This document shows, piece by piece, positions 21,034 to 49,358 of a stretch of 64,000 nt of DNA. Made by a program: the position numbers and the translations under genes. The notes under the pieces were generated by a model. That model saw only the letters and a list, made by a program, of their open reading frames with translations. It did no database searches and was not told the DNA's origin. This DNA comes from a virus, in IMG/VR virus record IMGVR_UViG_3300014656_000017, positions 32,001 through 96,000 of that record, one strand, 5' to 3'. The first letter of the stretch is position 1. Every line of letters begins with the position of its first letter.

Positions 21034-21052
21034 ACTAGCTCCTTTATTGACC

Positions 21053-21073
21053 GTGCGTGTTAAAGATGCGCAC
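21053..21073 (-). promoter_or_regulatory. 5'-UTR hairpin, candidate translational operator of the polymerase gene
   Basis: GUGCG-11 nt-CGCAC stem 8 nt upstream of the SD, in otherwise AT-rich DNA. Confidence 0.45.
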
Positions 21074-21089
21074 ACCCTTATTTTAATTA

Positions 21090-21119: not shown

Positions 21120-22484
21120 TTATTTTTTTAATAATTGGTTTTCGAAAGGAACGGCTGCTTTTTCATCGGGATTTAATCGATATAAAGTTTTTCGATCCGG
21201 TGAGCCAATTTTTGTAAAGTATAATTCGTTAAATTCATCCAAATGATCATCTAACCACATTGTATCAGCATAAGCTCGTGCTTGTTTAGAATAGTTCATA
21301 TAAGTATCTTCATCTTTTAGAAGCAGTTTTAACTGATCAATCAAATCTGTCCCCTTATTAAATTTTAATGGGGCATCTTGATAAGTTACTAGATTTTGAA
21401 ACACTCCAGGAATTCCTAAACAAGCAGACTCTAAAAACTTAATATTGCTTTTAGCTTTGTTAAATGTAATATCTTGAAGAGGAGCAAATACAGCACTCAT
21501 TTTAGGCTCATAATATGCTTTCCATAAATCCATTAAAGGAAACCATTGAATAAATTCCATTTCTCCGCGATCAATAAAAGGTTTGCAAGGTAGTGGAAAG
21601 CATCCAACAAACACCCATTTAAAATCATTTCGTGTTTTAATAATCGCATCCACGACATGATGAAAATCATCTCGCTGATTTGTTTTATTTAATACATCAA
21701 TATGTGTACCCGATCCAACATAGGCAACTCGGGGTTTCTTTTTATTGTCTTGGTAATTCTTTAAAATTCTATCTGGTTCATAATGTTTATCCATCCACAT
21801 TTTAGCAGGATAATTAGGAACAACAGTAATATTTTTATTACCAGTCTTATGAGTATAGTAATCTTTCATGAACTGACAAGTTACACTAATCTCATCACTC
21901 ATCTTCATCATTTCAATACAACTGTTTAAAATTTGATCATTTTCAAATGCCACTTTACATCTATTAAAATCTGGAATATCGTCTTTGAAAATAATATCAT
22001 CAATTTCATATATAATTTTATAGTTATGATGTGATGCAATGCTTTTTAAAAATTTCACAAATTCTAATTGAACTGGAGTTGCTTGTCTCTGTAATCTAAC
22101 AGCTTTTATACCACCATAAAATCTAGGATCTAACACCATTGTAGTTAATCCGTTAATAACACATTTCTGGTTCATATTTAATAGCATTTCCGGAGCTATC
22201 ATTCTCCACCAGCCGCAGCCGGCATAATCCGCATAGTAATTAACAGCTCTGTTTAATCCTTGTCCTGGTATTTCAAGAGGAGGAGGAGTTCGAGATTGGG
22301 GTATTTGGTGAGCAATGTGAGGTACATATGCTTGCCCCACTGGTTTTCCCATAACATTCCCCATACTGTGATATTTTGTAGGTATAACTTGTTGAGCAAC
22401 ATAAGCTGGAGCCTGCTCCGGAACGGGATTTTTAAATTTAAGAGCCATTATCGATTCTCCTGGTGTATCCATTATATTTTTCAA
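21120..22484 (-). CDS. GT-B (GT4-like) glycosyltransferase
   Basis: GCGWWRM, YEIDD, APLQDITFNKAKSNIKFLE motifs; true start possibly at MALKF. Confidence 0.8.
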   Translation of the reverse strand: MKNIMDTPGESIMALKFKNPVPEQAPAYVAQQVIPTKYHSMGNVMGKPVGQAYVPHIAHQIPQSRTPPPLEIPGQGLNRAVNYYADYAGCGWWRMIAPEMLLNMNQKCVINGLTTMVLDPRFYGGIKAVRLQRQATPVQLEFVKFLKSIASHHNYKIIYEIDDIIFKDDIPDFNRCKVAFENDQILNSCIEMMKMSDEISVTCQFMKDYYTHKTGNKNITVVPNYPAKMWMDKHYEPDRILKNYQDNKKKPRVAYVGSGTHIDVLNKTNQRDDFHHVVDAIIKTRNDFKWVFVGCFPLPCKPFIDRGEMEFIQWFPLMDLWKAYYEPKMSAVFAPLQDITFNKAKSNIKFLESACLGIPGVFQNLVTYQDAPLKFNKGTDLIDQLKLLLKDEDTYMNYSKQARAYADTMWLDDHLDEFNELYFTKIGSPDRKTLYRLNPDEKAAVPFENQLLKK

Positions 22485-24237
22485 GATTTATAATTTCACC
22501 AGTAGCATGTTTGACTGCTTCTCTTTTATGGCTAATAATATAAATTGCTTCATTAAAATTACTAACTCTTTCTTGTAAAATCCCCATAACACATTCAATA
22601 CCTTTGTCGTCTAATGAACTATCTAATAGCTCATCATAGATCACTGTATTAATAGATACATTAGATTGGAGTCGACGAATATCAATAAAGGTAAATAACA
22701 TTGCTAGATCTATACGTTTCCTTTCTCCACCAGAAAAATTAAAATATGAACATTTTTGACCTCTTTCATTTAAAATGTTCTCTTCAAAATATTCATTAAA
22801 TGTGCAAACACAATTAGCATCTAATTTTTTGAGATAATAGTTCAATCGACCGTTCAACAATTTTAACATCTTTTTAACAATAAAACTTTTTACACCCTCT
22901 TCTGATACTACAAATTTAGCAACATCTAAAAGGTGCAACTTTTCTTTGTACTTATTTAGTTCAATATTTAATATTTCAACCCGTGTTTGTGCTTCATTTA
23001 TAAGTTCTATATATGTATCCTGTTCACCTTGTATTGTTTTTATATCTATTTCGGTTTGAGCACTCCAAATTTCTTTTTGTTTTATTTGTGTGGTGATTGT
23101 CTCATTTTCCATTTTAATTAATTCAAATTTATGTTTTTCATCAATTAAGATATCAATAATATTATTACATTTGTTCTTCTTGGTTTCAATTTCAGTTAGG
23201 GATTTATTAATTTCTATTAATGAATTATTAATGCTGTCAATTTCATTTTGATATTGTTTGATAATTTCTGTGTCTCGAGATTTATCTTTGGTGGTAAACG
23301 GCCTATTGCATGTAATACATATTCCACCTTTTTGCTCAATTTGATTGATCTTACCACTCAATTCTTTTGTTGTTAATATGTTTTGTATTTGTTGTGTAGT
23401 GATCTTTTTTTCTGTATCCGCAATATTTTTCTTTTTAGATTCTACAGTTCTTATTTTATCATCTAAAATATTATAGGTTTTAATATCTACATCTTTTATT
23501 GCATCTTTTAATGTTTTAATAGTTGTAATATTATCATCTAACCTAATTTGAAGATTGTTCACTCTATCAATTTTATTTTGATTATGAGCAAATTGTTGTT
23601 TTTTATATACTTCTAGTGACTGTTTAATTTCATTAGCTTTAACATTTTCAATATCATATTGTTTTTTTGCTTCATTTAAATCTTGTCTAATAACACTAAG
23701 CATATCCGTAAATAATGTGAGCTTAAATATGCCCTCAATAAAATTTTTCTTAGCTAAACCTTTTTTAGCTAAAAAGGGTTCTGTTTGATTTAGACTCATT
23801 ACAACACTTTGTTCAAACAAATCAGACCCTGCGCCCAATATCTCTTCAACTAATTCGGTTGTTTTGGCCATCGTACGAGAAATATCTACAGTATCTTTGA
23901 ACAATTGTACTCTAGAAGGATGTGTAGATCTTTGTAATACATATTCTGATTTAATCCCGTTTTCAATAACATCGAATAATAGAGATACTTCTCCACCCGA
24001 TTTATTATTCCAATTTATTAGATTTTCTTTTTTGATATCTCTAAGAGGCCTTCCAAAAAGAGAATAAAAAAACGCATCAGCTATTGCAGATTTACCTACA
24101 CCATTTCTACTATCTTCTTTGTCTTTATTGACACCCGTTATAATATTACACCCAATATTAAAATGAAGTTCTATGGGGTCTGAACCTATAGATAGAAAAT
24201 TTTTAATACTAAGTTTTTTAAAATAAATCTCTTTCAT
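22438..24237 (-). CDS. gp46: Recombination ATPase subunit (SbcC/Rad50-like)
   Basis: KNFLSIG, NGVGKS, CITC zinc hook, FSGGERKR, DELLD, ISH. Confidence 0.95.
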   Translation of the reverse strand: MKEIYFKKLSIKNFLSIGSDPIELHFNIGCNIITGVNKDKEDSRNGVGKSAIADAFFYSLFGRPLRDIKKENLINWNNKSGGEVSLLFDVIENGIKSEYVLQRSTHPSRVQLFKDTVDISRTMAKTTELVEEILGAGSDLFEQSVVMSLNQTEPFLAKKGLAKKNFIEGIFKLTLFTDMLSVIRQDLNEAKKQYDIENVKANEIKQSLEVYKKQQFAHNQNKIDRVNNLQIRLDDNITTIKTLKDAIKDVDIKTYNILDDKIRTVESKKKNIADTEKKITTQQIQNILTTKELSGKINQIEQKGGICITCNRPFTTKDKSRDTEIIKQYQNEIDSINNSLIEINKSLTEIETKKNKCNNIIDILIDEKHKFELIKMENETITTQIKQKEIWSAQTEIDIKTIQGEQDTYIELINEAQTRVEILNIELNKYKEKLHLLDVAKFVVSEEGVKSFIVKKMLKLLNGRLNYYLKKLDANCVCTFNEYFEENILNERGQKCSYFNFSGGERKRIDLAMLFTFIDIRRLQSNVSINTVIYDELLDSSLDDKGIECVMGILQERVSNFNEAIYIISHKREAVKHATGEIINLEKYNGYTRRIDNGS

Positions 24238-25183: not shown

Positions 25184-25777
25184 TTAGACATATTCAAGCT
25201 CGCAATTGTTTCTAAACTCTTGAAGATTCATTGCATTTACATAACTAAACGCTGATTTTAATCCATGCTCTATCTCACGCAAGATATACTTAGCATGTCC
25301 TTTAAACGGAACCTTCAACATCTCACCCTCTACAAACTCATTCTTTAACCCTGAAGATACTTTATTTTCCATACTAGCTGAACCACCATACATCTTATAG
25401 TATCTTCTATCTACTAAATTAGTTCCTGGTTCTGGATATACATTTCCTGGAGTTTCTGTAGTACCTGCTAGTACAGCACCTACCATAACAGCATCTGCAT
25501 ACTTTAATGCTTTAGCAACATCACCAGAACTTGTAATACCTCCATCAGATATCATTTTAATGGGAAGCCCTTGTCTAACAATTTCATCATAACAAGAATG
25601 TAAGGCTCCTAATTGTGGATGGCCTACACCCGTACGTTGAGTTGTAACACAAACAGAATTATGAACAACCATTCCTTCTGCAATATATGAATGGGGGTCT
25701 CCAACCTCTAGGTCATAAACAGGCCCAGAGTATTTATATTTTTTAATATTAGTAATAGGAACAAGATTAAATTTCAT
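25184..25777 (-). CDS. guaC: Split intein C-part fused to the C-terminal half of an IMPDH/GMP reductase family enzyme
   Basis: MKFNLVP...VYDLEV..HSYIAEGMVVHN|SVCVTTQRTGVG, SDGGI, GDVAKAL, YGGSAS, VEG; SD GGAGG before the ATG at 25777. Confidence 0.88.
   Translation of the reverse strand: MKFNLVPITNIKKYKYSGPVYDLEVGDPHSYIAEGMVVHNSVCVTTQRTGVGHPQLGALHSCYDEIVRQGLPIKMISDGGITSSGDVAKALKYADAVMVGAVLAGTTETPGNVYPEPGTNLVDRRYYKMYGGSASMENKVSSGLKNEFVEGEMLKVPFKGHAKYILREIEHGLKSAFSYVNAMNLQEFRNNCELEYV
25658..25777 (-). mobile_element. Split intein IntC (40 aa)
   Basis: Block F VYDLEV and terminal HN followed by Ser+1. Confidence 0.9.
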
Positions 25778-26928
25778 TTCGCCTCCAAAAAATCTATGCA
25801 TTTCTTAATAATTATATCTTTATTTTTCTTATAGTCAAGTGAAAGAATTCTTAAACATTTAGCGCCAGGCAGCTCCTTTTTAATATTTGTCTCTCTAATT
25901 TTATCTTTTTGTACATCATGCCATTTTGGATCATCATACTCTACCCATTTGTTAAGATCTTTAATATAAAAATCTAATCTATAATACTTCCCGTTTTTCA
26001 GCTCTACTAAAAACTCATTATTTATATGATCGTTTCGTATACCATTATCATTGGTTGCAAAATATATATTTTTATATTTGTGTGATATATTTTTATAAAT
26101 TTCCCAAAAAATCTCTTGTGATATATTAGACCATCCATGAGTTTTTAGTTTTTTAAGTATTTGTTTATTTTTATATCTATAATCTTTCCACCTTTTTGTT
26201 CCATTTATTTTTCCATAAATTCTTATGAATTTTTCTAATGTTTGTGCTTTAGATTTTTTATATTGATTGTATATTTCTGTGCCTTTATGTATACCATATT
26301 TTTCAATATATTTTTCAATAGTATGTTTATTTTTAAGACGATTTTTATATTCTTTTACTTTTATATTTGCTTCCTCTATTGATAATCCTTTCTTAATCCA
26401 ATATTCCGGCAAAAAACAACTCACATATTTGTCAGGATACATTTTTTTATATATTCCGAATTTCAAGCCTGCATTTCTTGAGTTGTCACTTAAAATTTTT
26501 TGTGCTTCGTCTGATGTGTGTCCTCTTTTAATCCAGTATTCTGGACATCTACAACTTCCCGTTCGATACTTTTTCTTATTATTTGTATACCATTTGCGTA
26601 TTTTTGATCCTGCCTCCGCAAGAAACTGGCTTCTTTTATTTTCAATTTCTTCGCCTGTATACCCCTTATCAATCCAATATTCTTTACAATTCTTTAAACA
26701 TTTTCGGTGAATGCAATAATTGCAGTATTTTTTATATCCCAACACTCCATTAATATATTCTGTTGATTTATTACATACCTTACACACACCTTCGTTGGCT
26801 TTTTTAAAATGTGTATCGTAATAGTCCTTAATCTGTTTTTTGTTGAATTTGTGTTTATTAGATAAATGCTTACTGAAATTATACAAATTGCTGCTTTGTT
26901 TTTGACATAAAATACATATAGGTTGCAT
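25774..26928 (-). CDS. Free-standing homing endonuclease (Vsr-like/PD-(D/E)xK) with zinc fingers and repeated DNA-binding motifs
   Basis: C2H2 and CxxC N-terminus, 3x EYWIxxG, 2x EK(Y/F)IxxYG, C-terminal RLDFYIKDLNKWVEYDDPKWH; lies between the split-intein halves. Confidence 0.8.
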   Translation of the reverse strand: MQPICILCQKQSSNLYNFSKHLSNKHKFNKKQIKDYYDTHFKKANEGVCKVCNKSTEYINGVLGYKKYCNYCIHRKCLKNCKEYWIDKGYTGEEIENKRSQFLAEAGSKIRKWYTNNKKKYRTGSCRCPEYWIKRGHTSDEAQKILSDNSRNAGLKFGIYKKMYPDKYVSCFLPEYWIKKGLSIEEANIKVKEYKNRLKNKHTIEKYIEKYGIHKGTEIYNQYKKSKAQTLEKFIRIYGKINGTKRWKDYRYKNKQILKKLKTHGWSNISQEIFWEIYKNISHKYKNIYFATNDNGIRNDHINNEFLVELKNGKYYRLDFYIKDLNKWVEYDDPKWHDVQKDKIRETNIKKELPGAKCLRILSLDYKKNKDIIIKKCIDFLEAK

Positions 26929-26948
26929 ACTTATCCGCCTTCTATATA

Positions 26949-26956
26949 TATTTATG
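26949..26956 (-). promoter_or_regulatory. T4-type late promoter for the homing endonuclease
   Basis: CATAAATA 20 nt upstream of the ATG, same core as at 54464 and 60391. Confidence 0.5.
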
Positions 26957-27847
26957 CTAATTTGCTAATTTTTCTTGAGATTCTATCAAAAAATAATCAG
27001 TTGTTAATTGATCTGCAGGAACCCATTTGGCAAAAAGATGGATATTATCATCTGTAATTTTATTAACATCATTTTTATGAACAACATATATTTTATGATC
27101 ATTAGTGCACTTTAATGAATTGTTAATTTCAACCACTTCTTTACTATTATCAAATTTAAATGTTGTTGTAACTTCTTCGTATTTACCTGTATGAGTTAAT
27201 ACTATTTCACCTGGTTTAATGTCCTGTATTTTTCTTTGTCCTGTAGATGTTGTAATTTTTGTATCAGGTAAAAAACACCCACCCGCTATGCCAACTTTTG
27301 CTACATCAGCACCCCATTCATTTAAATCATAAACAGCTTCCGGTGTACAAACATTACCTGCAATTAAGCATATTTTAGACCTCTCTGATCGAGACCATTT
27401 AAACAATTCGCTTGTAATCCATAGTAACATTTTTTTTGTATGTTCATGATGACCATGAGCTACATCAATACAAAAGATTCGAGCACCAGCGCAATATAAT
27501 TCTGCAAACCTTTCTTTATCTTCTGCTTGTACACCAAGAGAAACACCAATGAGAGGTATATTATAATCATTATCAGGGGTTGTTACCCATCTATAATCAT
27601 CTCTTGCTTGTTGTATAGTATCAAATCTGTGTAAAATACCTAACCCACCAGCGTCCCACATTGTAGTTGCCATTTTAGGACCTGTAATATTTTTCATATT
27701 AGCAGAAATTACAGGAAGTTTTAAAATTACATTATTATGGATCTTGCTGGAAATGTCTACATCATTGCGACTAGCAATAGTGCTATAAACTGGTTTAATA
27801 ACTACATCACTAAAATGCTCTGAGTATTTATTGTTGTTCATATCCAC
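26957..27847 (-). CDS. guaC: N-terminal half of an IMPDH/GMP reductase family enzyme fused to split intein N-part
   Basis: FSDVVIKP, PVISANM, GGLGILHRF, IDVAHGH, AGNV, KVGIAGG|CFLPDTKI; no CBS domains. Confidence 0.88.
   Translation of the reverse strand: MDMNNNKYSEHFSDVVIKPVYSTIASRNDVDISSKIHNNVILKLPVISANMKNITGPKMATTMWDAGGLGILHRFDTIQQARDDYRWVTTPDNDYNIPLIGVSLGVQAEDKERFAELYCAGARIFCIDVAHGHHEHTKKMLLWITSELFKWSRSERSKICLIAGNVCTPEAVYDLNEWGADVAKVGIAGGCFLPDTKITTSTGQRKIQDIKPGEIVLTHTGKYEEVTTTFKFDNSKEVVEINNSLKCTNDHKIYVVHKNDVNKITDDNIHLFAKWVPADQLTTDYFLIESQEKLAN
26960..27277 (-). mobile_element. Split intein IntN (106 aa)
   Basis: Block A CFLPDTKI, block B CTNDHKIY, WVPADQL, then a stop codon. Confidence 0.9.
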
Positions 27848-31972: not shown

Positions 31973-32574
31973 GTTATTTCCTTCTGAGGATCTAAAAATA
32001 TAACGCCTTGTTTAGACCCTTCTGCTTTATTATTATACCTGTAAATTACATTATTTCCATATATATTTTTAAAGTATTTTTCGTAGTTTTTAAATGTGTA
32101 TGAAATATTATCATGAGTGTCATATCCATATTCAGGATGGTATGGATTATGAAAGTCGTGTATAACTAAATATGGCTTAATTGATAATTTGGCCATAAAC
32201 TCTAGTTCTCTTTGTAGTATCATTCCTCCACCCCAATGTGCATCTAAAAAGGCAAGGATTTTTTTATTTTTTAATCCATCTAAATTGTTTTCAAGCACTG
32301 TAGGGCTATCTCCCAAAAAAATATCAAAATATTCACATTTTTTCACTGCATTAGTTGTAATGGTTAAAAATTCTTCGTTTTTTTCAATTGCCATTACAGG
32401 AATTTTAAATTTAACCAAAAACTGGGTTGTATTTCCTAGATGCGTACCTGTTTCGATAATTAGATTTGGTTTAAATGTTGATACTATCTTAATAAATGCT
32501 TTTTGCAAATATGTATCCCCTTCAAATGCAATTTTATCTATCATACTATTTCCTGTTGTATTAAATTTTTCCAA
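31969..32574 (-). CDS. Class I SAM-dependent methyltransferase-like protein
   Basis: IIETGTHLG, GDS, FLDAH, IHD. Confidence 0.7.
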   Translation of the reverse strand: MEKFNTTGNSMIDKIAFEGDTYLQKAFIKIVSTFKPNLIIETGTHLGNTTQFLVKFKIPVMAIEKNEEFLTITTNAVKKCEYFDIFLGDSPTVLENNLDGLKNKKILAFLDAHWGGGMILQRELEFMAKLSIKPYLVIHDFHNPYHPEYGYDTHDNISYTFKNYEKYFKNIYGNNVIYRYNNKAEGSKQGVIFLDPQKEIT

Positions 32575-38672: not shown

Positions 38673-40084
38673 ATTTTATGTATCCAAGTATCCGTATTAC
38701 CCCAATGTGTATTAGTTCCTAATAGTTTGCTTATATGTTGAGGAAAACTTGTTTCATTTTGCAACAATTTCCACCTGTCATAAATGCCTTCATGCCCACC
38801 ATACCACATATTTTTAAATTTAACATCTTTTTCAAAATAAACTGCATAATGATTAAATCTAACCGGAATGAGAATTCCTAATCCATTGCCGTTAACCAAA
38901 CATGGAGGCTCATGTGACTTAAACATATCTTTCTTCCAATGCCATAATCTTCTATATGGAAGTGCTTTGCCTTCACCCCATTGCCCTCTTGCAAACAAAT
39001 TAGGGCCGACAAAATAATTACATAAAAATGCTCCTGTTTTGGCTTTATTTTGTGTTAAAATTTCTTCTGCTTTCTTAATATTTTCAATTGTCCATTGTTC
39101 ATCAACGTCTATTTCCCATACAAAAGCTTCATCTGCAAGTTTATTAATTTCTTCTGCAGCTTTATTAACTTGCTGATCTTTTCCTTCCCACATTTTATCG
39201 GCTAATACTAATATCAAATTATCATTCTTAGAAGATAGTTCAATTAGATATTCTCTAGTACCATCTACTGAAGCACCATTATTTTGATATTCATTGGACA
39301 TATTATTACACCAACTGGTGCTGCCTTGATTCTTTGATGCTCCTTCTATTACTACCCAATAATCAAAATTTTTAAGAATATATTCTGCATAATCGTTATG
39401 TTTTAAATGATGTACTCCATTTAAAACGATTGTAAATGCGATTCTTTTCAATTTCTTTTCCTTTATATATAATGCATCTCCCCAAGTAGTCATTCCATTC
39501 TCCGTATCCCATTCAATTTCTTTTCTTACAAATCCAAATTTGGCTAAAAATTCATCTAAGTCTTGAATTAGTGCACAATCTTTATACACTTCTTCTCTGT
39601 TAACTTCGGTGAATATATAGTCAATGTTTTTTAAAGTAGTAGTGGCCCCTTTTAAAATTTCGAGTTCGAATCCTTGTGCATCCATTACTAAACAGTTGTA
39701 TGATTCATCTAAATCATATCCATCTATTTCTTTAACACTAACTTTAGTTTTTTTAGGAAAACTAATGTGTGGATATTGTTGTAGATGTACTTTAGGCTCA
39801 AGTAAAGAATTTGATGCTCCGTTATTGTCTGTTTCCGTATACATAATACCAATATAAGAACGTGCTCCTAATGCTGCATTAATACATTTTATTTTAGGAA
39901 AGGGCTTAGCCGCTTCTTCCATCTTTTTAAAATTATTTTTGTCTGGCTCGAACAATATAGCATTTTTAAGTGTTGGAATAGAATTATATAGTGGAGCTTC
40001 TTGACCCACATGACCACCAGCATGGATAACTCCAGTTATGTGCATGTTATATTTTGAATATAAATATGGAAAGCTTAATTTCAT
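38669..40084 (-). CDS. Fusion of an FkbM-family methyltransferase and a GT-A-like domain
   Basis: IHAGGHVGQE, FEP, MDAQGFELEILKG, WGDALY; second domain VIEGAS...SVDGT...IDVDEQW. Confidence 0.78.
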   Translation of the reverse strand: MKLSFPYLYSKYNMHITGVIHAGGHVGQEAPLYNSIPTLKNAILFEPDKNNFKKMEEAAKPFPKIKCINAALGARSYIGIMYTETDNNGASNSLLEPKVHLQQYPHISFPKKTKVSVKEIDGYDLDESYNCLVMDAQGFELEILKGATTTLKNIDYIFTEVNREEVYKDCALIQDLDEFLAKFGFVRKEIEWDTENGMTTWGDALYIKEKKLKRIAFTIVLNGVHHLKHNDYAEYILKNFDYWVVIEGASKNQGSTSWCNNMSNEYQNNGASVDGTREYLIELSSKNDNLILVLADKMWEGKDQQVNKAAEEINKLADEAFVWEIDVDEQWTIENIKKAEEILTQNKAKTGAFLCNYFVGPNLFARGQWGEGKALPYRRLWHWKKDMFKSHEPPCLVNGNGLGILIPVRFNHYAVYFEKDVKFKNMWYGGHEGIYDRWKLLQNETSFPQHISKLLGTNTHWGNTDTWIHKI

Positions 40085-40704
40085 TGAGCAAACCTATTAA
40101 CTATGTTTTCATCAAATTTAATCATTTCTTTTAGTCCAGGACCGCCATGTGGATAAGTTGGTATATATTTATATCTCTTAACACAGGAAGGCCAATTGAT
40201 ATTTTTTCTTGACCCTCTTAATAACTTAGATGTTTCAACACTTCGATCATTATCTTCAATGATGAAAGTGCACGGCAATCTTAAATTTTGTACATATCTA
40301 ACGGCTTCGTAAAAATGACCACCGTCTTCACCACCGTCTCCAATAAAACACCATACTTTGTTTTTTGATCCTTTCAATTTAAGAGCTAATGCCACTCCAG
40401 CAGCAATACCAGCAGTTCCGGCTAATACAGACGAAGTTAGAAAGTTTAACTTCTTATCAAACACAAACATGCTATCTCCATTTCGTATTTTTTGTTCTAA
40501 TACTTTTGGATCTCCGCCTTTTAGCAAATAATGATAATGGGATCGATGAGTTGAAAAAACATAATCATCTGGTTTTATATCTTTAAATATGTGCAACAAC
40601 TGATCTTCATTTCCACCTGAAAAGTGTACCAAAAAAGGCAATTTGCCCTCTTTAAATACTTCCTTCATTTTGGTTTCAAAGTCTATTAATTCTTTTTTAG
40701 TCAT
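40081..40704 (-). CDS. TPP-dependent enzyme, E1-alpha-like diphosphate-binding subunit (short form)
   Basis: HFSGGNE, STHRSHYH, TPP motif GDGGEDGG...EDND. Confidence 0.85.
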   Translation of the reverse strand: MTKKELIDFETKMKEVFKEGKLPFLVHFSGGNEDQLLHIFKDIKPDDYVFSTHRSHYHYLLKGGDPKVLEQKIRNGDSMFVFDKKLNFLTSSVLAGTAGIAAGVALALKLKGSKNKVWCFIGDGGEDGGHFYEAVRYVQNLRLPCTFIIEDNDRSVETSKLLRGSRKNINWPSCVKRYKYIPTYPHGGPGLKEMIKFDENIVNRFAQ

Positions 40705-41768
40705 TAGACAAAGTTATCCCCATAAGCATTTAATAATTCGTGAATAAATATATTCTTATTATCATTCGCACAAAAACATTTGCAACATATTTGTGGGTTA
40801 AATTTATCAAAATGTTTTTTAGTTTCTTCACTAAACCATAATTGTTTAAATGATTGGTTTTTAATGGATCCTATTATTCCATCCGTAGAATATGCTTTGT
40901 TATGACAATTATACACAAAACTATCAGCGCCTATTACAGGAATGGTTTGCATAATATAACATCTATTATAGGGTCGTTTAAAACTTTCTGGCTCAATTTT
41001 GTATCCATCATATATTTTAAATTCACTGTTTTCATAAAACTTTTTTGTACACTCTAGTATATATGAAACTTCTTTAGTAATATTACGATGATATTCAACA
41101 TAATTATCTACTTGAACTGGAAAATATCTTATATTATTAATACCTATTTCTTTTAACAATTTTGTCATTTCATGTATATTGTCTACATTTTCTTTGGTTA
41201 TAATATAATTAACAGATAATTCACATACATCATTTTTGATTTTATTAAACTCTATAATGTTAGATATTATTTGATCAAACATTTTTTCATTTCCGCCGCG
41301 TGATTTGACAAAAGATTCTGCGTCGTAATAATCCATAGAAATTCTAATCCATTTAGCTTTAGATAAAACCTCCGCGCGCTTTCCATTCAATAATTGGGCA
41401 TTTGTTAATAGAGATAAATCTAGTCCATTGTCCAAAGTTCTTTGCATGGCTTCTGCTATATTAGGATGCATTAACGGTTCTCCACCGCCAGAATATGTTA
41501 CACATTTTGTTCCCATATCTTTTAAATCATCTAGTACTTCAAACAGTTTATCTTTGGGCAACATATCAGATTCATTCATTGTTTCATGCATATGAACATT
41601 TTTAGCTCTATAAATACAAAATGAACAACTATGGCAACATTTATTAATAGGCTTTATTCGTACGTAGATAGGAGGTGTTATTCGTCCATCTTTAAAGGAA
41701 TTAAGCTTTTCAGGAAACCATACTATTTTTTTGTTACTATATTTATTTGTTGTTTTTACCATACTCAA
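40704..41768 (-). CDS. Radical SAM enzyme with SPASM/Twitch domain
   Basis: CCHSCSFC, SGGGEP, C-terminal Cys cluster. Confidence 0.88.
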   Translation of the reverse strand: MSMVKTTNKYSNKKIVWFPEKLNSFKDGRITPPIYVRIKPINKCCHSCSFCIYRAKNVHMHETMNESDMLPKDKLFEVLDDLKDMGTKCVTYSGGGEPLMHPNIAEAMQRTLDNGLDLSLLTNAQLLNGKRAEVLSKAKWIRISMDYYDAESFVKSRGGNEKMFDQIISNIIEFNKIKNDVCELSVNYIITKENVDNIHEMTKLLKEIGINNIRYFPVQVDNYVEYHRNITKEVSYILECTKKFYENSEFKIYDGYKIEPESFKRPYNRCYIMQTIPVIGADSFVYNCHNKAYSTDGIIGSIKNQSFKQLWFSEETKKHFDKFNPQICCKCFCANDNKNIFIHELLNAYGDNFV

Positions 41769-41774
41769 TTCCTA

Positions 41775-42827
41775 TTAAATAAATTCATCATTATTTTCGG
41801 GGTGTTTAAGTCTGTCTAAATATCTATTAATTACGTCTAATCGACAGCAATAATTTTTGCACGTTTTAAATTTCAATTTATTAATTTGTGCAATTATATC
41901 TTTTCTTTTCTGACTTGTCCAAATTTCTTTAAACGTATTGTTATACAGATTACCATAAACATATTTTGAATTATAAAAAATAGAACAAGGTATAATATCT
42001 CCTTTAGCATCTATAATAACATAAAAATCAAAACCATGACATCCTGTATAATTTTTTTCTTGTGTAAGTCTTTCTGCACTTTTAACTCTAACCACTACAG
42101 TAAATTTATCATCTTCCAATTTTTCCAAATTTTCTTTTAATGTTTGGTGTGCAAATTTATATATTCCAGTAGAGTATGAACTCTTTGGATGGTTATGCGC
42201 TGGTTTTAATTGAAAATTATCAACACCAGCATTTTTACACCACAAGGCTAGCATTTCAGCTTCATTAATATTTTCATTCATTAAAATTAACTGTACGCCA
42301 ATATCAACCTTAAAATTGTTGGCCTTTTTAATTTCAACACAGTCTTTTATATTTTGTAATATAATATCGTAATTTTTTGGTGATATACCATGAATGAGTG
42401 CATGGGTTTCTGCCGTACCCGCATCTATACTAAATCGTAACCAAGAAAGATCTCCTAATATTTCTGTTGCCATTTTTTTATTAAAAAGAGATCCGTTTGT
42501 GGATATAGCTTGTCCCATTCCTAATTGTTTTCCATACTTTATAAATTCAACTAGATTCTTATGTAAGGTGGGTTCTCCTTCACCAGCATAGTAAACTGAT
42601 TTAACTCCCATTTCAGCCATTTCTTTTAATGTATTCATAAATACATCTTTATCTATTTCATTCTTTCCATGTGTAGACCAATCTAAAATGCAAAACTTAC
42701 ATTTATGATTGCATTTATTTGTTATGCCCACTTCTGCATGAAAGGGTACATATTCACCGTTCATCCACTTTATTAAACATTGAGGATGATACATCAGTTT
42801 ATGTGAATCACTATCTTTAACACTCAT
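41775..42827 (-). CDS. Radical SAM enzyme with SPASM/Twitch domain (paralog of the neighbour)
   Basis: CNHKCKFC, GEGEP, GDIIPC...GNL...FKEIW. Confidence 0.88.
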   Translation of the reverse strand: MSVKDSDSHKLMYHPQCLIKWMNGEYVPFHAEVGITNKCNHKCKFCILDWSTHGKNEIDKDVFMNTLKEMAEMGVKSVYYAGEGEPTLHKNLVEFIKYGKQLGMGQAISTNGSLFNKKMATEILGDLSWLRFSIDAGTAETHALIHGISPKNYDIILQNIKDCVEIKKANNFKVDIGVQLILMNENINEAEMLALWCKNAGVDNFQLKPAHNHPKSSYSTGIYKFAHQTLKENLEKLEDDKFTVVVRVKSAERLTQEKNYTGCHGFDFYVIIDAKGDIIPCSIFYNSKYVYGNLYNNTFKEIWTSQKRKDIIAQINKLKFKTCKNYCCRLDVINRYLDRLKHPENNDEFI

Positions 42828-43779
42828 TATTTTTCTCCTTGTTTATCCAGTATTTAACAAGATCTTTTAATGTATTTTTTAAACTATATTTTGGTTTCCA
42901 ATTTAAAAACCTCTTAACTTTTACACTATTTGGATGTACTGTCAACGTATCTATAGGTCTATAAAGTTTTTCATCTATTGTTAATTCAACATCTTTTAAT
43001 TTGAATTCATTTAACATAATCTTTATATAATGTTCTATATCATATGTTTTTGTTGCGCTTATGTTAAACACTTCTCCATTGTTTATTGCTCCGTTTAAAT
43101 GATTTGTCATTAGTTGATAATACACATCTACCATATCTCGTACATCTAAAACTGCTCGACTGGCTTTTATATTACCTACACGAATAATCTTATCTTGTTT
43201 GTTTAATATAATTTTAGCTATTTGTCTTGCATCAGAAGATATAGAAAATGTTGAAGGTCTGCCTGGACCTGTATGTGAAAATGGTCTAACAATAAAATTT
43301 TTCAATTTGGCGTTTTGTGATCTTTCTAAAATATACATATCAGCAGCAGCTTTAGATACCCCATAAGGATTGTTAGGTTGTAATGGACAATTTTCCTTTA
43401 TTTGTTCTTTCACATTTCCATACACATCGCCCGTAGAACACTGCATTATAATGCTTTGCGGGGCATTAGATAAAATGGATTCGCATAGATTTATAGTGCC
43501 TATAGTATTAGTGTTAAATGTAAGTAGAGGATCTTGAAATGCTAGTGGTATATGTGTTTGCGCTGCCAAATGAAAAATTCCGTCAAATGTGTTATTAGTT
43601 AAAATATTAACTATTTGTTGTTTATATGTTAAGTCACACCGGTGATAATTAATACCTGTAATAGGCTGAAATCCTTCAGTTTTATATGTACCATGAACTA
43701 TATGATTTTCAGCTAACAACTTTTGAGCTAAATGTTGTCCTGCAAAACCAGATACTCCTGTTATTAGAAATTTTAGCAT
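42817..43779 (-). CDS. NDP-sugar SDR, GDP-mannose 4,6-dehydratase / 4-keto-6-deoxy-mannose reductase (GMD/RMD)-like
   Basis: TGVSGFAG, HLAAQT, YGVSK, RPFSHTGPG, DVRD. Confidence 0.82.
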   Translation of the reverse strand: MLKFLITGVSGFAGQHLAQKLLAENHIVHGTYKTEGFQPITGINYHRCDLTYKQQIVNILTNNTFDGIFHLAAQTHIPLAFQDPLLTFNTNTIGTINLCESILSNAPQSIIMQCSTGDVYGNVKEQIKENCPLQPNNPYGVSKAAADMYILERSQNAKLKNFIVRPFSHTGPGRPSTFSISSDARQIAKIILNKQDKIIRVGNIKASRAVLDVRDMVDVYYQLMTNHLNGAINNGEVFNISATKTYDIEHYIKIMLNEFKLKDVELTIDEKLYRPIDTLTVHPNSVKVKRFLNWKPKYSLKNTLKDLVKYWINKEKNNEC

Positions 43780-44351
43780 TGTTCAGTATATAAATCCTTA
43801 TCTTCCACAATTAAACAACTTTCATCAGCATTATATATGGTTATAATATCATCTGCTCTCAAAGGCAGTTCAATAACTGGCATATCACACATCTCTCTAA
43901 ACGCTTTAGAAAAATTTTGTGTATGAGTGGCTCCAGTAAATAGTGGGTTTGCTTTATTTCCTACTACAGTTCTTATGATAACACGCGGATCAAATTCTCC
44001 GTGTGACATTTGTTTAATTTTATCTAAATGGTTTACAATAGCATCGGCGGCATGGATAACAAAATCAAATCTTTCAATATATACAACAGGTTTAAATCCT
44101 TCTAAGCTTAATCCAATAGCCATAGAAACAATAAGATTTTCTGCTACAGGTGTTTCTATTAATTGATTATCTGGAATATTCACAAGAGTTCCATTGGCTT
44201 TAGATCCATACTTCACATTATATCCAATAAACAATGTTTTTGGATCTTCAGCTAATATTTCCATTGAAGTTCTGATAGCGTCTTTATAGGTCATATATAG
44301 TCCATTTATTTTTAAGAGTTGGTTTTTCATCGGGTGGATATCGGCGCGCAT
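43773..44351 (-). CDS. TPP-dependent enzyme, E1-beta/transketolase pyrimidine-binding subunit (short form)
   Basis: ETPVAE, AIGLSLEG, GATHTQ; true start probably MTYKDAI. Confidence 0.82.
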   Translation of the reverse strand: MRADIHPMKNQLLKINGLYMTYKDAIRTSMEILAEDPKTLFIGYNVKYGSKANGTLVNIPDNQLIETPVAENLIVSMAIGLSLEGFKPVVYIERFDFVIHAADAIVNHLDKIKQMSHGEFDPRVIIRTVVGNKANPLFTGATHTQNFSKAFREMCDMPVIELPLRADDIITIYNADESCLIVEDKDLYTEQC

Positions 44352-44997
44352 ATCTGTGACTGTACAATTTATCTGTAATGTTTAAAGTGTCCGCAAGAAA
44401 CAAAAAACTGCTTTCTACTACATGAATTTCTTTCGCGTGTTCAATAATGTAACAGTAGTCGAATATATTATTTGTGTAATTTTCTTTAGCGTAAATGGTT
44501 GGAACATTTTGTGGTACAAGTTTTCTATTAATTATAAATTTACCTTTATAGTTATTTCCATTATCTTCGTGAAAAAATATATATTCTCCTTCTTTTACAT
44601 TGAATCTTTTAAAAAAAGATTTTTCTCTTTCCATGTCTCTGTCAAGATAAAAATCGGTCCATCTTTTTTCAAAATCGATATTATATTGCTTGTAGAAAGC
44701 TTGATCAAAGTTTATGTTATTGTCTCTAAACTCATACCCTATTTTTAACAATTTTTGTGGATTATTTAGTTTAATCCATTCTTCAGCTTGTGGTTCTTTT
44801 TGGACCATTAAATACTTAATATTTTTTAAATCCCTATACATCCACATTACAGAGGGAGCTTTAGATTGTTTAATAAACAAATTAATTTGATCATAATCTT
44901 TAATAAGATTTCTTATTAATCCGTTGCACACTATATTATCCCCAAGGTGGAGATGTGGATAAATGTATACATTGTTATACATTATAATTTCCCCCAT
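44284..44997 (-). CDS. Glycosyltransferase-like protein
   Basis: HLGDNIVCNG, FHED, IEHAKEIHVVESSF. Confidence 0.6.
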   Translation of the reverse strand: MGEIIMYNNVYIYPHLHLGDNIVCNGLIRNLIKDYDQINLFIKQSKAPSVMWMYRDLKNIKYLMVQKEPQAEEWIKLNNPQKLLKIGYEFRDNNINFDQAFYKQYNIDFEKRWTDFYLDRDMEREKSFFKRFNVKEGEYIFFHEDNGNNYKGKFIINRKLVPQNVPTIYAKENYTNNIFDYCYIIEHAKEIHVVESSFLFLADTLNITDKLYSHRYARRYPPDEKPTLKNKWTIYDL

Positions 44998-45763
44998 GCC
45001 TATAAGGAAGATCGGTGAACATATGAATCTTTTCTGGTGGGACTAATAAATTAACGCCAAAATATTTAATAGGAGCATCACCCCATCGCTTAATAAAAAT
45101 GTTTCCTGTTTTATCAATATAGTTGAAATAGTCCATATAGTTTTTTATAAACCACTGCACATTTGTAAGATCAAAATGTGTATGAAAAGTACCATTATAT
45201 TTCAATTCACCTATTTTAGGATTGTTTGGTTGATATTTTTTAACGGTTTCATATAATCCTTCTATTACATAATCATCATCTATTCCCTCTCCAACAGAAG
45301 CGTACAGATAATCTTTTTCTTGCATTACAGCAAACGGATCATATTTCATTTTATCATAAAAATATGAATCAGAATCTATTCTAAGCAAATATTGAGCCGC
45401 TTTTATTATAGGCAGTTCAAAAATTTTACCAGAATACAGTCTACACATATGCCTATAACCCATACTAAAAAATGCAGTCTTATCCCAATGTCCTTTAAAT
45501 TTAATTGGTATTTGATCAATAATATCTTTAGAATAATCGAGATCAAATTGTATTTCTTGGAAAATAAATTTAATGTTTGGAAACATTTGTTGTAGCCTTT
45601 TAATATTGTTTGCGGGGCCTCCCTCGTGTAAAATTATTACAGGATAGTCCCACGTGCTTAAAAAATTATTGTATAACAATTTAAGACTTGACACAATCCT
45701 ATATGCATGAAGAGGGTGATGATAGTATAAATAACAGATTGCGGCATTAGGTATAATTTTCAT
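44975..45763 (-). CDS. GT15 (Kre2/Mnt1-like) alpha-1,2-mannosyltransferase
   Basis: GYRHMCRLYSG, RIDSDS, GNIFIKRWGDAP, YRH. Confidence 0.85.
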   Translation of the reverse strand: MKIIPNAAICYLYYHHPLHAYRIVSSLKLLYNNFLSTWDYPVIILHEGGPANNIKRLQQMFPNIKFIFQEIQFDLDYSKDIIDQIPIKFKGHWDKTAFFSMGYRHMCRLYSGKIFELPIIKAAQYLLRIDSDSYFYDKMKYDPFAVMQEKDYLYASVGEGIDDDYVIEGLYETVKKYQPNNPKIGELKYNGTFHTHFDLTNVQWFIKNYMDYFNYIDKTGNIFIKRWGDAPIKYFGVNLLVPPEKIHMFTDLPYRHGGNYNV

Positions 45764-46483
45764 TTAATTATATATTATCCAATTTCTTTTAAGTGTAGGT
45801 TGAGCAAAAGGTTCAATATTTCTACTGTATTTATGAAGATATAATTTATTCCCAATGTCTAAAGAATCAATTAAAGGAGAGAAGCTACTAGGTATTACAT
45901 GAATTTCTTTTGCTCTTTCAATGATCGTTAAATAATCAAATATATTTGGGGTTAATCCTTTTTCTGAAAAAACTATTTTTGGAATTGATATTAACTTTTT
46001 GTCTACAATCATATTTCTGGCTACATCCTCGTGTACAAAGGCATATTCAGAATCGTCCAAGTTATATTTAATCTTTATTTTTTTATAAAATTGTTCTTCG
46101 CTAGGCAAATCTCTTATAACCTTAAACCCCTCCCACCGTTTACTAAAATCTACTCCCATCTTATAATAAAAACTAAAATCATAAACTCTACTAGATCTAT
46201 CAAAGGTTTGCATGCCTATCATGATATGAGGCAATTTTTTTTGATGAACGGTTAACATCATATTATATTCATTAAGAGTAGATATGCACTCTAAATTTTT
46301 AATGTCTCTATACATAAAAATGACAGAATCAATATGAGTGTGCATTACAAACAAGTAACATTTGTCAAATTTCGTACAGATAGCTCGAATGAGAGCATTG
46401 CACACTATAAAATCTCCTAATCCTTGGCTTTGACATATATAAATTTCTGGCATATTACATGATTCTTTTTCTTTTACTTTCAA
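45764..46483 (-). CDS. Glycosyltransferase-like protein, paralog of 44284-44997
   Basis: GLGDFIVCNA, MYRDIKN, VHED, IERAKEIHVIPSSF. Confidence 0.6.
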   Translation of the reverse strand: MKVKEKESCNMPEIYICQSQGLGDFIVCNALIRAICTKFDKCYLFVMHTHIDSVIFMYRDIKNLECISTLNEYNMMLTVHQKKLPHIMIGMQTFDRSSRVYDFSFYYKMGVDFSKRWEGFKVIRDLPSEEQFYKKIKIKYNLDDSEYAFVHEDVARNMIVDKKLISIPKIVFSEKGLTPNIFDYLTIIERAKEIHVIPSSFSPLIDSLDIGNKLYLHKYSRNIEPFAQPTLKRNWIIYN

Positions 46484-48051: not shown

Positions 48052-48307
48052 TCTTTTTCTTCTTTGGTTTTTTAACAGTTTTCTTTTTTACTGCTTTCTT
48101 TTTTACTGCTTTATCTTTTGGATCTTTATCATCCTTGTGCTTTTCAATGTCTCTATCAGGTTTGCCCTTTTCTTTGACAGTTACCTTTCCAAGTACGATA
48201 CCTTCTTTTTTCATACTTTTCTTAAATTTTCCTGTATCAAAGTCAATAGCACCAATAATAGCATTCATTATGTTCTTATATTCGCCTTCTGGTTTTAGTT
48301 TAGCCAT
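48044..48307 (-). CDS. Small Lys-rich protein with histone-H1-like tail
   Basis: KAVKKKAVKKKTVKKPKKKK C-terminus; SD GGAG. Confidence 0.55.
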   Translation of the reverse strand: MAKLKPEGEYKNIMNAIIGAIDFDTGKFKKSMKKEGIVLGKVTVKEKGKPDRDIEKHKDDKDPKDKAVKKKAVKKKTVKKPKKKKNE

Positions 48308-49358
48308 TTTTTGTCTCCACTTTTTTATACACTTCTTGAAGATAGTTTGTTAGCTCTTCTTTCTTATCGAAGTTTTCTAAATTCTTAATAAACTCTTCAA
48401 TATCACCCTGAATATTTATACCTGAAAATACAAAATCAATCTCATCTATGACTTCAATATTTCCTATTGTACTATATTCTACTTTTAATTCCAATGGTTT
48501 AAGTAACGAGAACTTGTTAATCAGTGATTCTATCATTTGCGGATTTGCTTTTGCATCTACAATAAAAGATACAATATTGTCAGCAAATTCCTTTTTAATA
48601 GTACTTGTCAATTTTCCTACTGCTATTAGTTCTGATAGTCTTACCTTTCTATGTCGTGGTGATTGTAGATTGGGTATGAAATTTGCATTTTTAGTTGGTA
48701 TATCTAAAAGATAAATACCTTTTGGTGAATTAGCCTCTCCCCAGTTTTGTTCATACGGAGAACCTAAATATACAATAGTTCCATTAGAATATTTTCGAGC
48801 TTCAGTTAAATGAAAATGTCCTGTAATAATTAAATCTGCTTTTGTTAATAAATCATTAGAATTAATGCCGTATTCACAAATTCTTCTAGAATTCATTTTA
48901 AATGTCTTAATATCAAAATGTCCAAAAATAATATCACTATTAGGAATTTCATCTAACGGCGTATTCCATGGAACAAAGGTTAACATTTTTTCATGAGATG
49001 TAATAGTGGTCAATTTATCAATAACTGTTATATTTTCCCACTGATCTAATAAATCTAAAGAATGTACATCTGACCTTTTATTATAATAACAGTCATGATT
49101 TCCTACAAGCACAATAATATTAAAGCAATCTAATATTTCGAAAAATTTAGATAATTGTTGTAAAGTGGTCACAGGCACTTCATTTCGATCATCTAAAATA
49201 TCTCCTGCAATTATAATATCTTTGATATTGTTAGATAATAATGTTTCCTTTAGCCAGTGTGCAAAATTTAATATTATTTTATGCCATTGAGTAGAGGAGC
49301 CATGTAACCCTACATGCAAATCTGATATTAGTGCAACTTGTTCTTTAATTAGCTTCAT
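48300..49358 (-). CDS. gp47: Recombination nuclease subunit (SbcD/Mre11-like)
   Basis: SDLHVG, AGDILD, GNHD, GHF, TGHFH, YLGSP. Confidence 0.93.
   Translation of the reverse strand: MKLIKEQVALISDLHVGLHGSSTQWHKIILNFAHWLKETLLSNNIKDIIIAGDILDDRNEVPVTTLQQLSKFFEILDCFNIIVLVGNHDCYYNKRSDVHSLDLLDQWENITVIDKLTTITSHEKMLTFVPWNTPLDEIPNSDIIFGHFDIKTFKMNSRRICEYGINSNDLLTKADLIITGHFHLTEARKYSNGTIVYLGSPYEQNWGEANSPKGIYLLDIPTKNANFIPNLQSPRHRKVRLSELIAVGKLTSTIKKEFADNIVSFIVDAKANPQMIESLINKFSLLKPLELKVEYSTIGNIEVIDEIDFVFSGINIQGDIEEFIKNLENFDKKEELTNYLQEVYKKVETKNG

Follow-up and report, generated by a model that had tools for sequence, protein, structure and literature searches.

We analyzed a 64,000-nucleotide stretch of viral DNA (positions 32,001 to 96,000 of IMG/VR record IMGVR_UViG_3300014656_000017; the window hereafter). 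Five adjacent minus-strand genes at 40081-44351 encode a miniature thiamine diphosphate (TPP) enzyme split into α and β subunits, a short-chain dehydrogenase/reductase (SDR) and two radical S-adenosylmethionine (SAM) enzymes, rSAM1 and rSAM2. Comparison with related loci suggests that they are a composite of two cassettes. In what is likely the ancestral order, a small gene with a glycosyltransferase family 9 (GT9)-like fold is followed by β, rSAM2 and α. The window looks like this cassette with an SDR-rSAM1 pair inserted between β and rSAM2. We consider it highly likely that both cassettes serve a glycan pathway, and a sugar-tailoring role of the thiamine and radical SAM enzymes is well supported by their gene context. 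For the whole account, in which the thiamine enzyme would also add a two-carbon unit to a sugar carbonyl, our estimated probability is about 0.5.

The window belongs to one 110.9-kb viral contig with an estimated completeness of 49%. The genes are, in order of transcription, β (43773-44351), the SDR (42817-43779), rSAM1 (41775-42827), rSAM2 (40704-41768) and α (40081-40704). A first-pass annotation, made from the letters of the window, had described five co-directional genes in the order β, SDR, radical SAM, radical SAM and α. All five open reading frames (ORFs) are present on the minus strand, and their positions and domain matches agree with that order. β and the SDR overlap by 7 nt, the SDR and rSAM1 by 11 nt, rSAM2 and α by 1 nt, and α and the next gene by 4 nt. 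A 6-nt gap separates rSAM1 from rSAM2, which starts at TTG 41768 or ATG 41762. Because the five genes overlap by 1-11 nt or lie 6 nt apart, they are very probably co-translated. The GT9-like gene (44284-44997, minus strand) is the upstream neighbor of β.

To compare gene neighborhoods, the window proteins were mapped onto fetched loci: 80 viral and 80 metagenome loci with α, 29 viral loci from an rSAM1 alignment, 4 genome loci and 2 archaeal chromosomal regions. When viral contigs were scanned with single sequences, rSAM2 matched 2 loci and rSAM1 matched none; the rSAM1 loci come from an alignment-based scan of the same type of contig. The samples are redundant, with many close relatives and some contigs present in both collections, and the counts overstate independence.

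Four arrangements of the thiamine genes recur. In the first, the small GT9-like gene is followed by β, rSAM2 and α, and a podovirus-like lineage adds a 561-residue family 2 glycosyltransferase (GT2) just upstream; the order GT9-like, β, rSAM2, α is found in L152, L155 and L169. In the second, α and β precede rSAM2. In the third, a zinc-dependent alcohol dehydrogenase (Zn-ADH) adjoins a fused or split α-β, and is usually followed by a kinase resembling domain I of RfaE or by a classical FabG-like SDR. In the fourth, α-β lies between two radical SAM paralogs of other subtypes. The five-gene order of the window occurs in 0 of about 160 related loci, and a thiamine cassette with a nested SDR-rSAM1 pair was seen in no other locus compared.

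The two cassettes also occur separately. Orthologs of the SDR (42-47% identity) are located immediately upstream of rSAM1 orthologs in L089-L101, where the adjacent pair is 42-69% identical to that of the window and has no thiamine enzyme. L090 contains a homologous glycan island between gp47 and gp46, and L089 a partial copy. Both islands, from the closest relatives, include SDR-rSAM1, and α, β and rSAM2 are absent from both. In L100, a 4,6-dehydratase-like gene and a fragment of an aminotransferase gene precede the pair. α/β is flanked by at least 2.5 kb on each side in 81 loci, and none of these has a window-type SDR (≥35% identity) nearby. The radical SAM tree (67 proteins) gave a similar picture. 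rSAM2 belongs to clade A (20 rows, aLRT 99). Of these rows, 17 lie no more than 2.5 kb from α/β, and orthologs of rSAM2 (42-55% identity) lie between or beside β and α in many loci. rSAM1 falls in subclade B1 (8 rows, aLRT 99); all eight adjoin an SDR, and only the window row has α/β. This is a quick PMSF tree and the α tree described below was built with FastTree, so their deep branches are only indicative.

These distributions bear on the proposal, made in the first-pass annotation, that the five genes form a single unit. In such a pathway, the SDR would supply or handle GDP-4-keto-6-deoxymannose, the miniature enzyme would attach two carbons at its keto carbon, as in the routes to yersiniose or eurekanate, and both radical SAM enzymes would oxidize or epimerize the same sugar. 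The genes are indeed co-directional and tightly overlapping, and α-β with two radical SAM paralogs is also found in L084, L086, L170, L179, L183, L184, L186 and L196. The move of SDR-rSAM1 into the thiamine cassette could reflect selection for co-expression. However, SDR-rSAM1 and β-rSAM2-α are each found alone, the rSAM1 subclade otherwise lacks thiamine partners, the closest relatives keep the pair without α/β, and the SDR type of the window is missing near α/β elsewhere. We therefore consider one five-gene pathway distinctly unlikely. The idea of sugar tailoring by TPP and radical SAM enzymes survives, with support from the gene context, and the idea of one unit does not.

The two cassettes may still be functionally connected, because sister lineages of rSAM1 in the tree flank α-β elsewhere, and because one 513-residue protein, P0236, is a fusion of a thiamine pyrimidine-binding (Pyr) domain with an rSAM1-like enzyme. 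The Pyr domain of P0236 is of a second, DXS/transketolase-like type. Viral loci L104, L106, L107, L111 and L160 encode a Pyr domain of this type in a gene of its own, close to rSAM1-like genes. This hints at a second family of miniature thiamine enzymes with radical SAM partners. One 63.6-kb contig seems to contain both an α homolog (P0011) and an rSAM1 homolog (P0131).

The α and β subunits are each reduced to a single domain. α (207 residues) matches E1_dh over profile positions 6-168 of 300, and aligns with only residues 68-208 of the 368-residue Geobacillus E1-α (1w85_A). It consists of the TPP-binding PP domain alone. In 18 diverse homologs, G122, D123, E150, D151, N152, R54 and H186 are invariant, and G124, H53, H56 and H58 nearly so. 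The TPP/Mg2+ motif GDG-X(24-27)-N is present, formed by G122-D123-G124 and E150-D151-N152. β matches Transket_pyr and the N-terminal half of pyruvate dehydrogenase E1-β, and aligns with only residues 6-180 of the 339-residue 2bp7_B. It consists of the Pyr domain, and lacks the C-terminal E2-binding domain. Its catalytic E71 and active-site H143 align with the equivalent residues of 2bp7_B and are 100% conserved in 79 distinct sequences, in which further residues are at least 99% conserved. The true start of β is most likely M20 (window position 44294), since E1-β chains in the PDB and the phage family phrog_34187 align only from residue 17-20. The protein would then have 173 residues, somewhat fewer than the 175-190 first suggested; the missing C-terminal domain had been recognized correctly.

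Matches of both subunits in Pfam and NCBIfam are restricted to the N-terminal halves of the profiles. Together, they cover the full length of phrog_34187, a family of unknown function with a 405-position fused α-β profile (α, positions 9-194, 244.6 bits; β, positions 234-405, 192 bits). Fused members include SSM2_198 of cyanophage S-SM2 and a homolog in P-TIM68, with 48-53% identity. Taken together, this appears to be a stripped-down but functional E1, as the reduced profile coverage and the intact cofactor-binding and catalytic residues suggest; a miniaturized, split TPP enzyme had been predicted at this site. α has more than 1,300 homologs of similar length, many of which are called 'pyruvate dehydrogenase E1 component alpha subunit' in public sources.

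This name raises the question of whether the genes are a host central-metabolism auxiliary set, encoding a pyruvate or acetoin dehydrogenase E1. The SPASM domain that Pfam assigns to both radical SAM enzymes is likewise common in peptide maturases, and would fit maturation of a ribosomally synthesized peptide. In either case the genes would lie among sugar genes by chance. However, the regions serving E2 are gone from both subunits. The absence of E2 genes noted earlier for the window extends to the whole record, where neither E2 (PF00198) nor lipoyl (PF00364) domains were matched at about 49% completeness, and the control genomes did match. Wherever the flanks of α/β homologs are annotated, they are glycosyltransferase or sugar-pathway neighborhoods, never E2/E3. 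The radical SAM enzymes have four auxiliary cysteines each, and their closest folds include the sugar-acting DesII and BlsE. Both explanations were rejected as highly improbable, and the earlier view that this is not a pyruvate dehydrogenase auxiliary gene is supported, including by the neighborhoods of its homologs.

rSAM1 and rSAM2 are paralogs over their full length (26% identity, E 3e-33). Each matches Radical_SAM and SPASM in Pfam, as the description of two 'rSAM-SPASM' proteins had implied. rSAM1 contains CX3CX2C and four invariant C-terminal cysteines (C263, C281, C323 and C328), and rSAM2 contains C44/C48/C51 and C270/C288/C329/C333. Despite the Pfam match, each paralog has four conserved C-terminal cysteines rather than the seven of the SPASM motif. 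Judged by sequence, both are thus Twitch-type enzymes, and the full SPASM assignment does not stand. BtrN has a single auxiliary cluster and four cysteines, and the spacing in rSAM1 and rSAM2 resembles that of its cluster.

The AlphaFold2 model of rSAM2 (pLDDT 88.4) is most similar to DesII (8hzv, Foldseek E 1e-16). It superimposes on BlsE (7vob) with TM-scores of 0.66/0.70, and SuiB, PqqE and anSME are further close folds. In sequence searches of the PDB, rSAM1 matched BlsE and BtrN, and the two enzymes together matched BlsE, BtrN, DesII and MoaA. DesII and BlsE act on nucleotide-linked sugars. rSAM2 is similar to them in fold, but sequence identity to DesII, BtrN and BlsE is only 13-18%, and every equivalog score in NCBIfam is far below its cut-off. 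We know of no thiamine-enzyme partner for DesII, BtrN or BlsE.

The miniature enzyme is associated with one of two oxidoreductases. In the 81 loci with sufficient flanks, radical SAM enzymes alone are found in 53, Zn-ADH alone in 26, both in 0 and neither in 2. This pattern is clear despite the redundancy of the loci. The two partner types are interleaved on the α tree (67 sequences). Parsimony gives 7 to 15 changes of partner, of which 1 to 4 are forced by well-supported branches. A parallel is found in aminoglycoside pathways, where the radical SAM enzyme BtrN and the Zn-ADH NeoA alternate. A classical FabG-like SDR recurs beside the cassette as well.

Structural comparison provided information on the likely type of sugar. 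No Pfam domain, including GT9 (PF01075), was matched in 44284-44997. The AlphaFold2 model of its product (pLDDT 89.5) has GT9 enzymes as its top 20+ Foldseek matches (E about 1e-5, TMq 0.5-0.6). The protein heptosyltransferase TibC (4rb4/4rap) is at the top, and 3tov and the heptosyltransferases WaaF (1psw) and WaaC are also among them. The nearest named Atlas cluster is GT9. Orthologs are located directly upstream of β in L152, L155, L157, L169, L173 and L191. GT9 enzymes have about 320-400 residues, whereas the phage transferase has about 240. The structural relatives of this compact family include DUF6165 proteins of giant viruses. A link to a second family of upstream genes (c3) is suggested by Atlas leads and the GT9-like fold of one family. 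The two families share only an N-terminal 'hLGDN' motif, and their hhalign probability of 3.5% is not significant.

Additional evidence comes from the neighbors of the fused enzyme. In phage loci, the adjoining kinase is most similar to heptose-7-phosphate kinase (RfaE-domain-I-like). Cyanophage loci have GmhA-like isomerases, nucleotidyltransferases and a class II aldolase near the fused enzyme. Of 201 genomes of the Nanoarchaeota phylum, 4 gave matches of at least 293 bits, and for two of them the matching contig is 329 or 969 kb long. In both of these DPANN chromosomes a classical SDR, an rSAM2-type enzyme and fused α-β lie close together. On the 329-kb contig the cassette adjoins a heptosyltransferase-II-like GT9 gene and a complete set of HldD, HldE-II, HldE-I+GmhA and GmhB. 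On the 969-kb contig it adjoins an RfaE-kinase-like gene, a haloacid dehalogenase (HAD) phosphatase and a GT9 gene. Because GT9-like folds, RfaE-like kinase genes and archaeal ADP-heptose genes recur, the context points to a heptose-type sugar rather than GDP-6-deoxymannose. We also considered a virus-restricted family, with the genome-contig scan giving at least 4 matches on short contigs of metagenome-assembled or single-amplified genomes; the four Nanoarchaeota-phylum genomes rule this out.

Based on these comparisons, we propose a mechanism for the first cassette, comprising the GT9-like transferase (44284-44997), mini E1-β, rSAM2 and mini E1-α, which is widespread in phages and also occurs in some archaea. 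On an activated sugar, probably of the heptose type, the DesII/BtrN-like rSAM2 or, in other lineages, an NAD-type Zn-ADH would convert a hydroxyl-bearing carbon to a carbonyl by oxidation or dehydration. The mini-E1, of the α2β2 type, would decarboxylate pyruvate and add the two-carbon unit to this carbonyl, giving a branched or chain-extended higher sugar. A ketoreductase, where present, would reduce the added acetyl group, which the recurrent FabG-like SDR fits. The GT9-like enzyme would then transfer the product into a phage-specified glycan. The second cassette, SDR and rSAM1, would carry out an independent radical oxidation or deoxygenation of a nucleotide sugar followed by ketoreduction, a step comparable in logic to DesII or AprD4/AprD3.

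The main rival places the thiamine enzyme earlier in sugar synthesis. It would act on sugar phosphates or sugar acids, either by transketolase/DXS-like transfer of a ketol or acyl group or by simple decarboxylation of a 2-oxoacid such as an ulosonic acid phosphate. The carbon skeleton would thereby be extended or shortened before activation by kinase, phosphatase and nucleotidyltransferase, and the oxidoreductase would make or consume an aldehyde or keto acid. α also matches DXS and transketolase models, but the best sequence matches of α and β are E1 α and β rather than transketolase. A heptose-7-phosphate-kinase-like gene adjoins the fused enzyme in many phage loci and on one archaeal chromosome, with a HAD phosphatase nearby, and the cyanophage isomerases, nucleotidyltransferases and aldolase would suit such a route. 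However, the commonest phage version consists of the GT9-like gene, β, rSAM2, α and GT2, with neither kinase nor nucleotidyltransferase. A decarboxylase paired with Zn-ADH is a classical arrangement. The closest folds of rSAM2, on the other hand, act on nucleotide-linked sugars. We regard this alternative as rather unlikely.

Several observations nevertheless weigh against carboligation onto an activated sugar. The kinase-like gene directly beside the thiamine enzyme in many loci could indicate action on a sugar phosphate, as in DXS and transketolase, instead of a nucleotide sugar. On the 329-kb DPANN contig, a dTDP-glucose 4,6-dehydratase and an RfbH-type 3-dehydrase gene lie upstream of the cassette on the same strand (L207:13039-19219). 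These could supply a 4-keto sugar, leaving the radical SAM enzyme without its proposed role. The mutual exclusivity of radical SAM and Zn-ADH demonstrates alternation, not identical chemistry, and fold likeness to DesII and BlsE in a predicted model does not determine which reaction is catalyzed. For every member of the family, substrate, C2 donor and product are assigned from context. Finally, the window contains no nucleotidyltransferase, kinase, Zn-ADH or classical SDR, and must therefore draw on nucleotide sugars of the host; no heptose-synthesis genes are encoded in it.

The SDR, which is of the extended type, is similar to enzymes acting on GDP-sugars. It matches GDP_Man_Dehyd with 199.5 bits, and its best PDB matches are the GDP-6-deoxy-D-lyxo-4-hexulose reductase RMD (6x3b, 1.5e-40), GDP-heptose 4,6-dehydratase (7us5, 1.6e-39) and RMD (2pk3). 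Similarity to Pseudomonas aeruginosa RMD and Campylobacter jejuni GDP-D-glycero-D-manno-heptose 4,6-dehydratase is in the range of E 1e-36 to 1e-40. The Rossmann GxxGxxG and catalytic YxxxK motifs are present, with TGVSGFAG and PYGVSKAAA aligned to both enzymes. The segment STGDVYG aligns with SSGDVYG in RMD (6x3b) and SSSEVYG in the heptose dehydratase. The Ser/Thr-x-Glu acid/base pair of dehydratases is missing, and STGD in place of SSSE makes the protein look more like a reductase than a dehydratase. That its nearest solved relatives act on GDP-sugars would suit the single five-gene pathway, but it is not obvious how an SDR of this type would supply a 4-keto sugar, and neither GMD nor a nucleotidyltransferase was found in the record (110.9 kb, about 49% complete). 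The SDR scores below every equivalog cut-off in NCBIfam (gmd, 117.5 against 415 bits). Unlike in the GMD/RMD route, its conserved partner is a radical SAM enzyme. This is closer to the dehydratase-reductase logic of AprD4/AprD3.

The thiamine cassette can be compared with known sugar-branching systems. YerE, a single-chain flavoenzyme, belongs to the decarboxylase (acetolactate-synthase-like) class. Unlike YerE, the window proteins match E1_dh and Transket_pyr, and have no single-chain TPP_enzyme_N/M/C architecture; in α, TPP_enzyme_C is weakly matched (28.8 bits) and the TPP_enzyme_N and M domains are not matched in Pfam. They thus belong to a different fold family from the YerE class, and differ from true E1 in lacking the E2-related parts and any E2 in the record. 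In yersiniose synthesis, the thiamine-dependent flavoprotein YerE has been shown to branch CDP-3,6-dideoxy-4-keto-glucose with a C2 unit (PMC4753412). The reaction proposed here would likewise join a C2 unit from pyruvate to a keto-sugar of a surface-glycan pathway, and the 4,6-dehydratase and RfbH of the 329-kb archaeal locus are makers of a YerE-type acceptor.

AviB1/AviB2 (avilamycin) and Pau11/Pau12 (paulomycin) are E1 α/β-like pairs for which the proposed reaction is attachment of an acetyl branch, derived from pyruvate, at C-4 of a deoxysugar (PMC4753412). Like them, the miniature enzyme is an E1 α/β pair without E2/E3 inside a sugar cluster, often with a ketoreductase alongside. It may work like the AviB/Pau branching enzymes and may be related to them. 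Unlike them, its subunits are about half the size (207 and about 173 residues), and it is almost always accompanied by a Twitch radical SAM enzyme or Zn-ADH. Its context is a heptose-type glycan of phages and archaea instead of an actinomycete antibiotic deoxysugar. The context is in turn similar to that of ADP-heptose/GT9 systems, with TibC as the top fold match of the upstream gene, heptose genes beside the archaeal cassettes and RfaE-like kinases in phage loci.

We found no paper describing a sugar cassette of a mini-E1 and a radical SAM enzyme, and phage-genomics papers mention radical SAM and lipopolysaccharide genes only in passing. If the proposed chemistry is true, the miniature enzyme would be smaller than any known E1-type thiamine enzyme, and the first to form a sugar C-C bond with an obligatory radical SAM or Zn-ADH partner. 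Tentatively, and with less confidence than in the account above, mini-E1 and Twitch radical SAM enzyme (or Zn-ADH) might constitute a new oxygen-independent two-enzyme C-C bond-forming system for heptose-type activated sugars, shared with DPANN archaea. Its product would be a branched or nine-carbon sugar undescribed in any glycan, used for decorating phage virions or remodeling the host surface. In the window, the addition of a radical SAM/SDR deoxygenation pair would give a doubly tailored sugar. The family is present in marine and freshwater phages, a 735-kb megaphage, the cultured cyanophages S-SM2 and P-TIM68, and DPANN chromosomes. Its characterization would give proper annotations to many proteins mis-called 'pyruvate dehydrogenase E1', and would define a new sugar of phage and archaeal glycans. 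Because cultured cyanophages have the Zn-ADH version, the question can be approached without anaerobic work.

Variants of the cassette are found in individual loci. In the 735-kb megaphage (LR756501.1:322599-324811), α (56% identity) and β (52%) are about 1.1 kb apart, a distance into which an rSAM2-type gene would fit. In freshwater podovirus-like contigs (L003-L044, e.g. L010:2700-8615), a P22-like coat gene is located about 400 bp upstream of the 561-residue GT2; the GT9-like gene and then β-rSAM2-α come next. This gene order suggests that the cassette in these phages serves capsid glycosylation. A 194-kb phage contig contains two α/β pairs about 3 kb apart (L050:7451-8606 and L050:11253-12392; also L191). 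The second α is about 40% identical to that of the window, and groups with a deep α clade. In L053, paralogous ORFs (L053:1145-1849 and L053:3050-3694) are located on either side of fused α-β, and the upstream one matches group I intron (GIY-YIG-type) homing endonucleases.

The phage itself is a distant T4-like phage. Its genes include those for an intein-containing family-B DNA polymerase, for SbcC/SbcD proteins resembling gp46/gp47, for a helicase and for a class II ribonucleotide reductase. The five genes are part of a glycan island of about 18 kb, a minus-strand run of glycosyltransferases, methyltransferases and sugar enzymes between gp47 (48300-49358) and gp46 (22438-24237). DNA glycosylation was considered as the target of the island and set aside, since no ThyA/dCMP-hydroxymethylase-like gene was found in the record, which is weak evidence from a record about half complete. 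Upstream of the GT9-like gene, a GT15-like gene (44975-45763), of a eukaryote-type α-mannosyltransferase family, is bracketed by two compact GT9-like paralogs, 44284-44997 and 45764-46483, which share 38% identity. Inteins are found elsewhere in the window at 17089-21075 and 25184-27847. The first is in DNA polymerase B, and in the second an IMPDH/GMP-reductase-like gene is present as two ORFs with Hint/intein pieces. A 384-residue ORF separates the two halves of this split gene.

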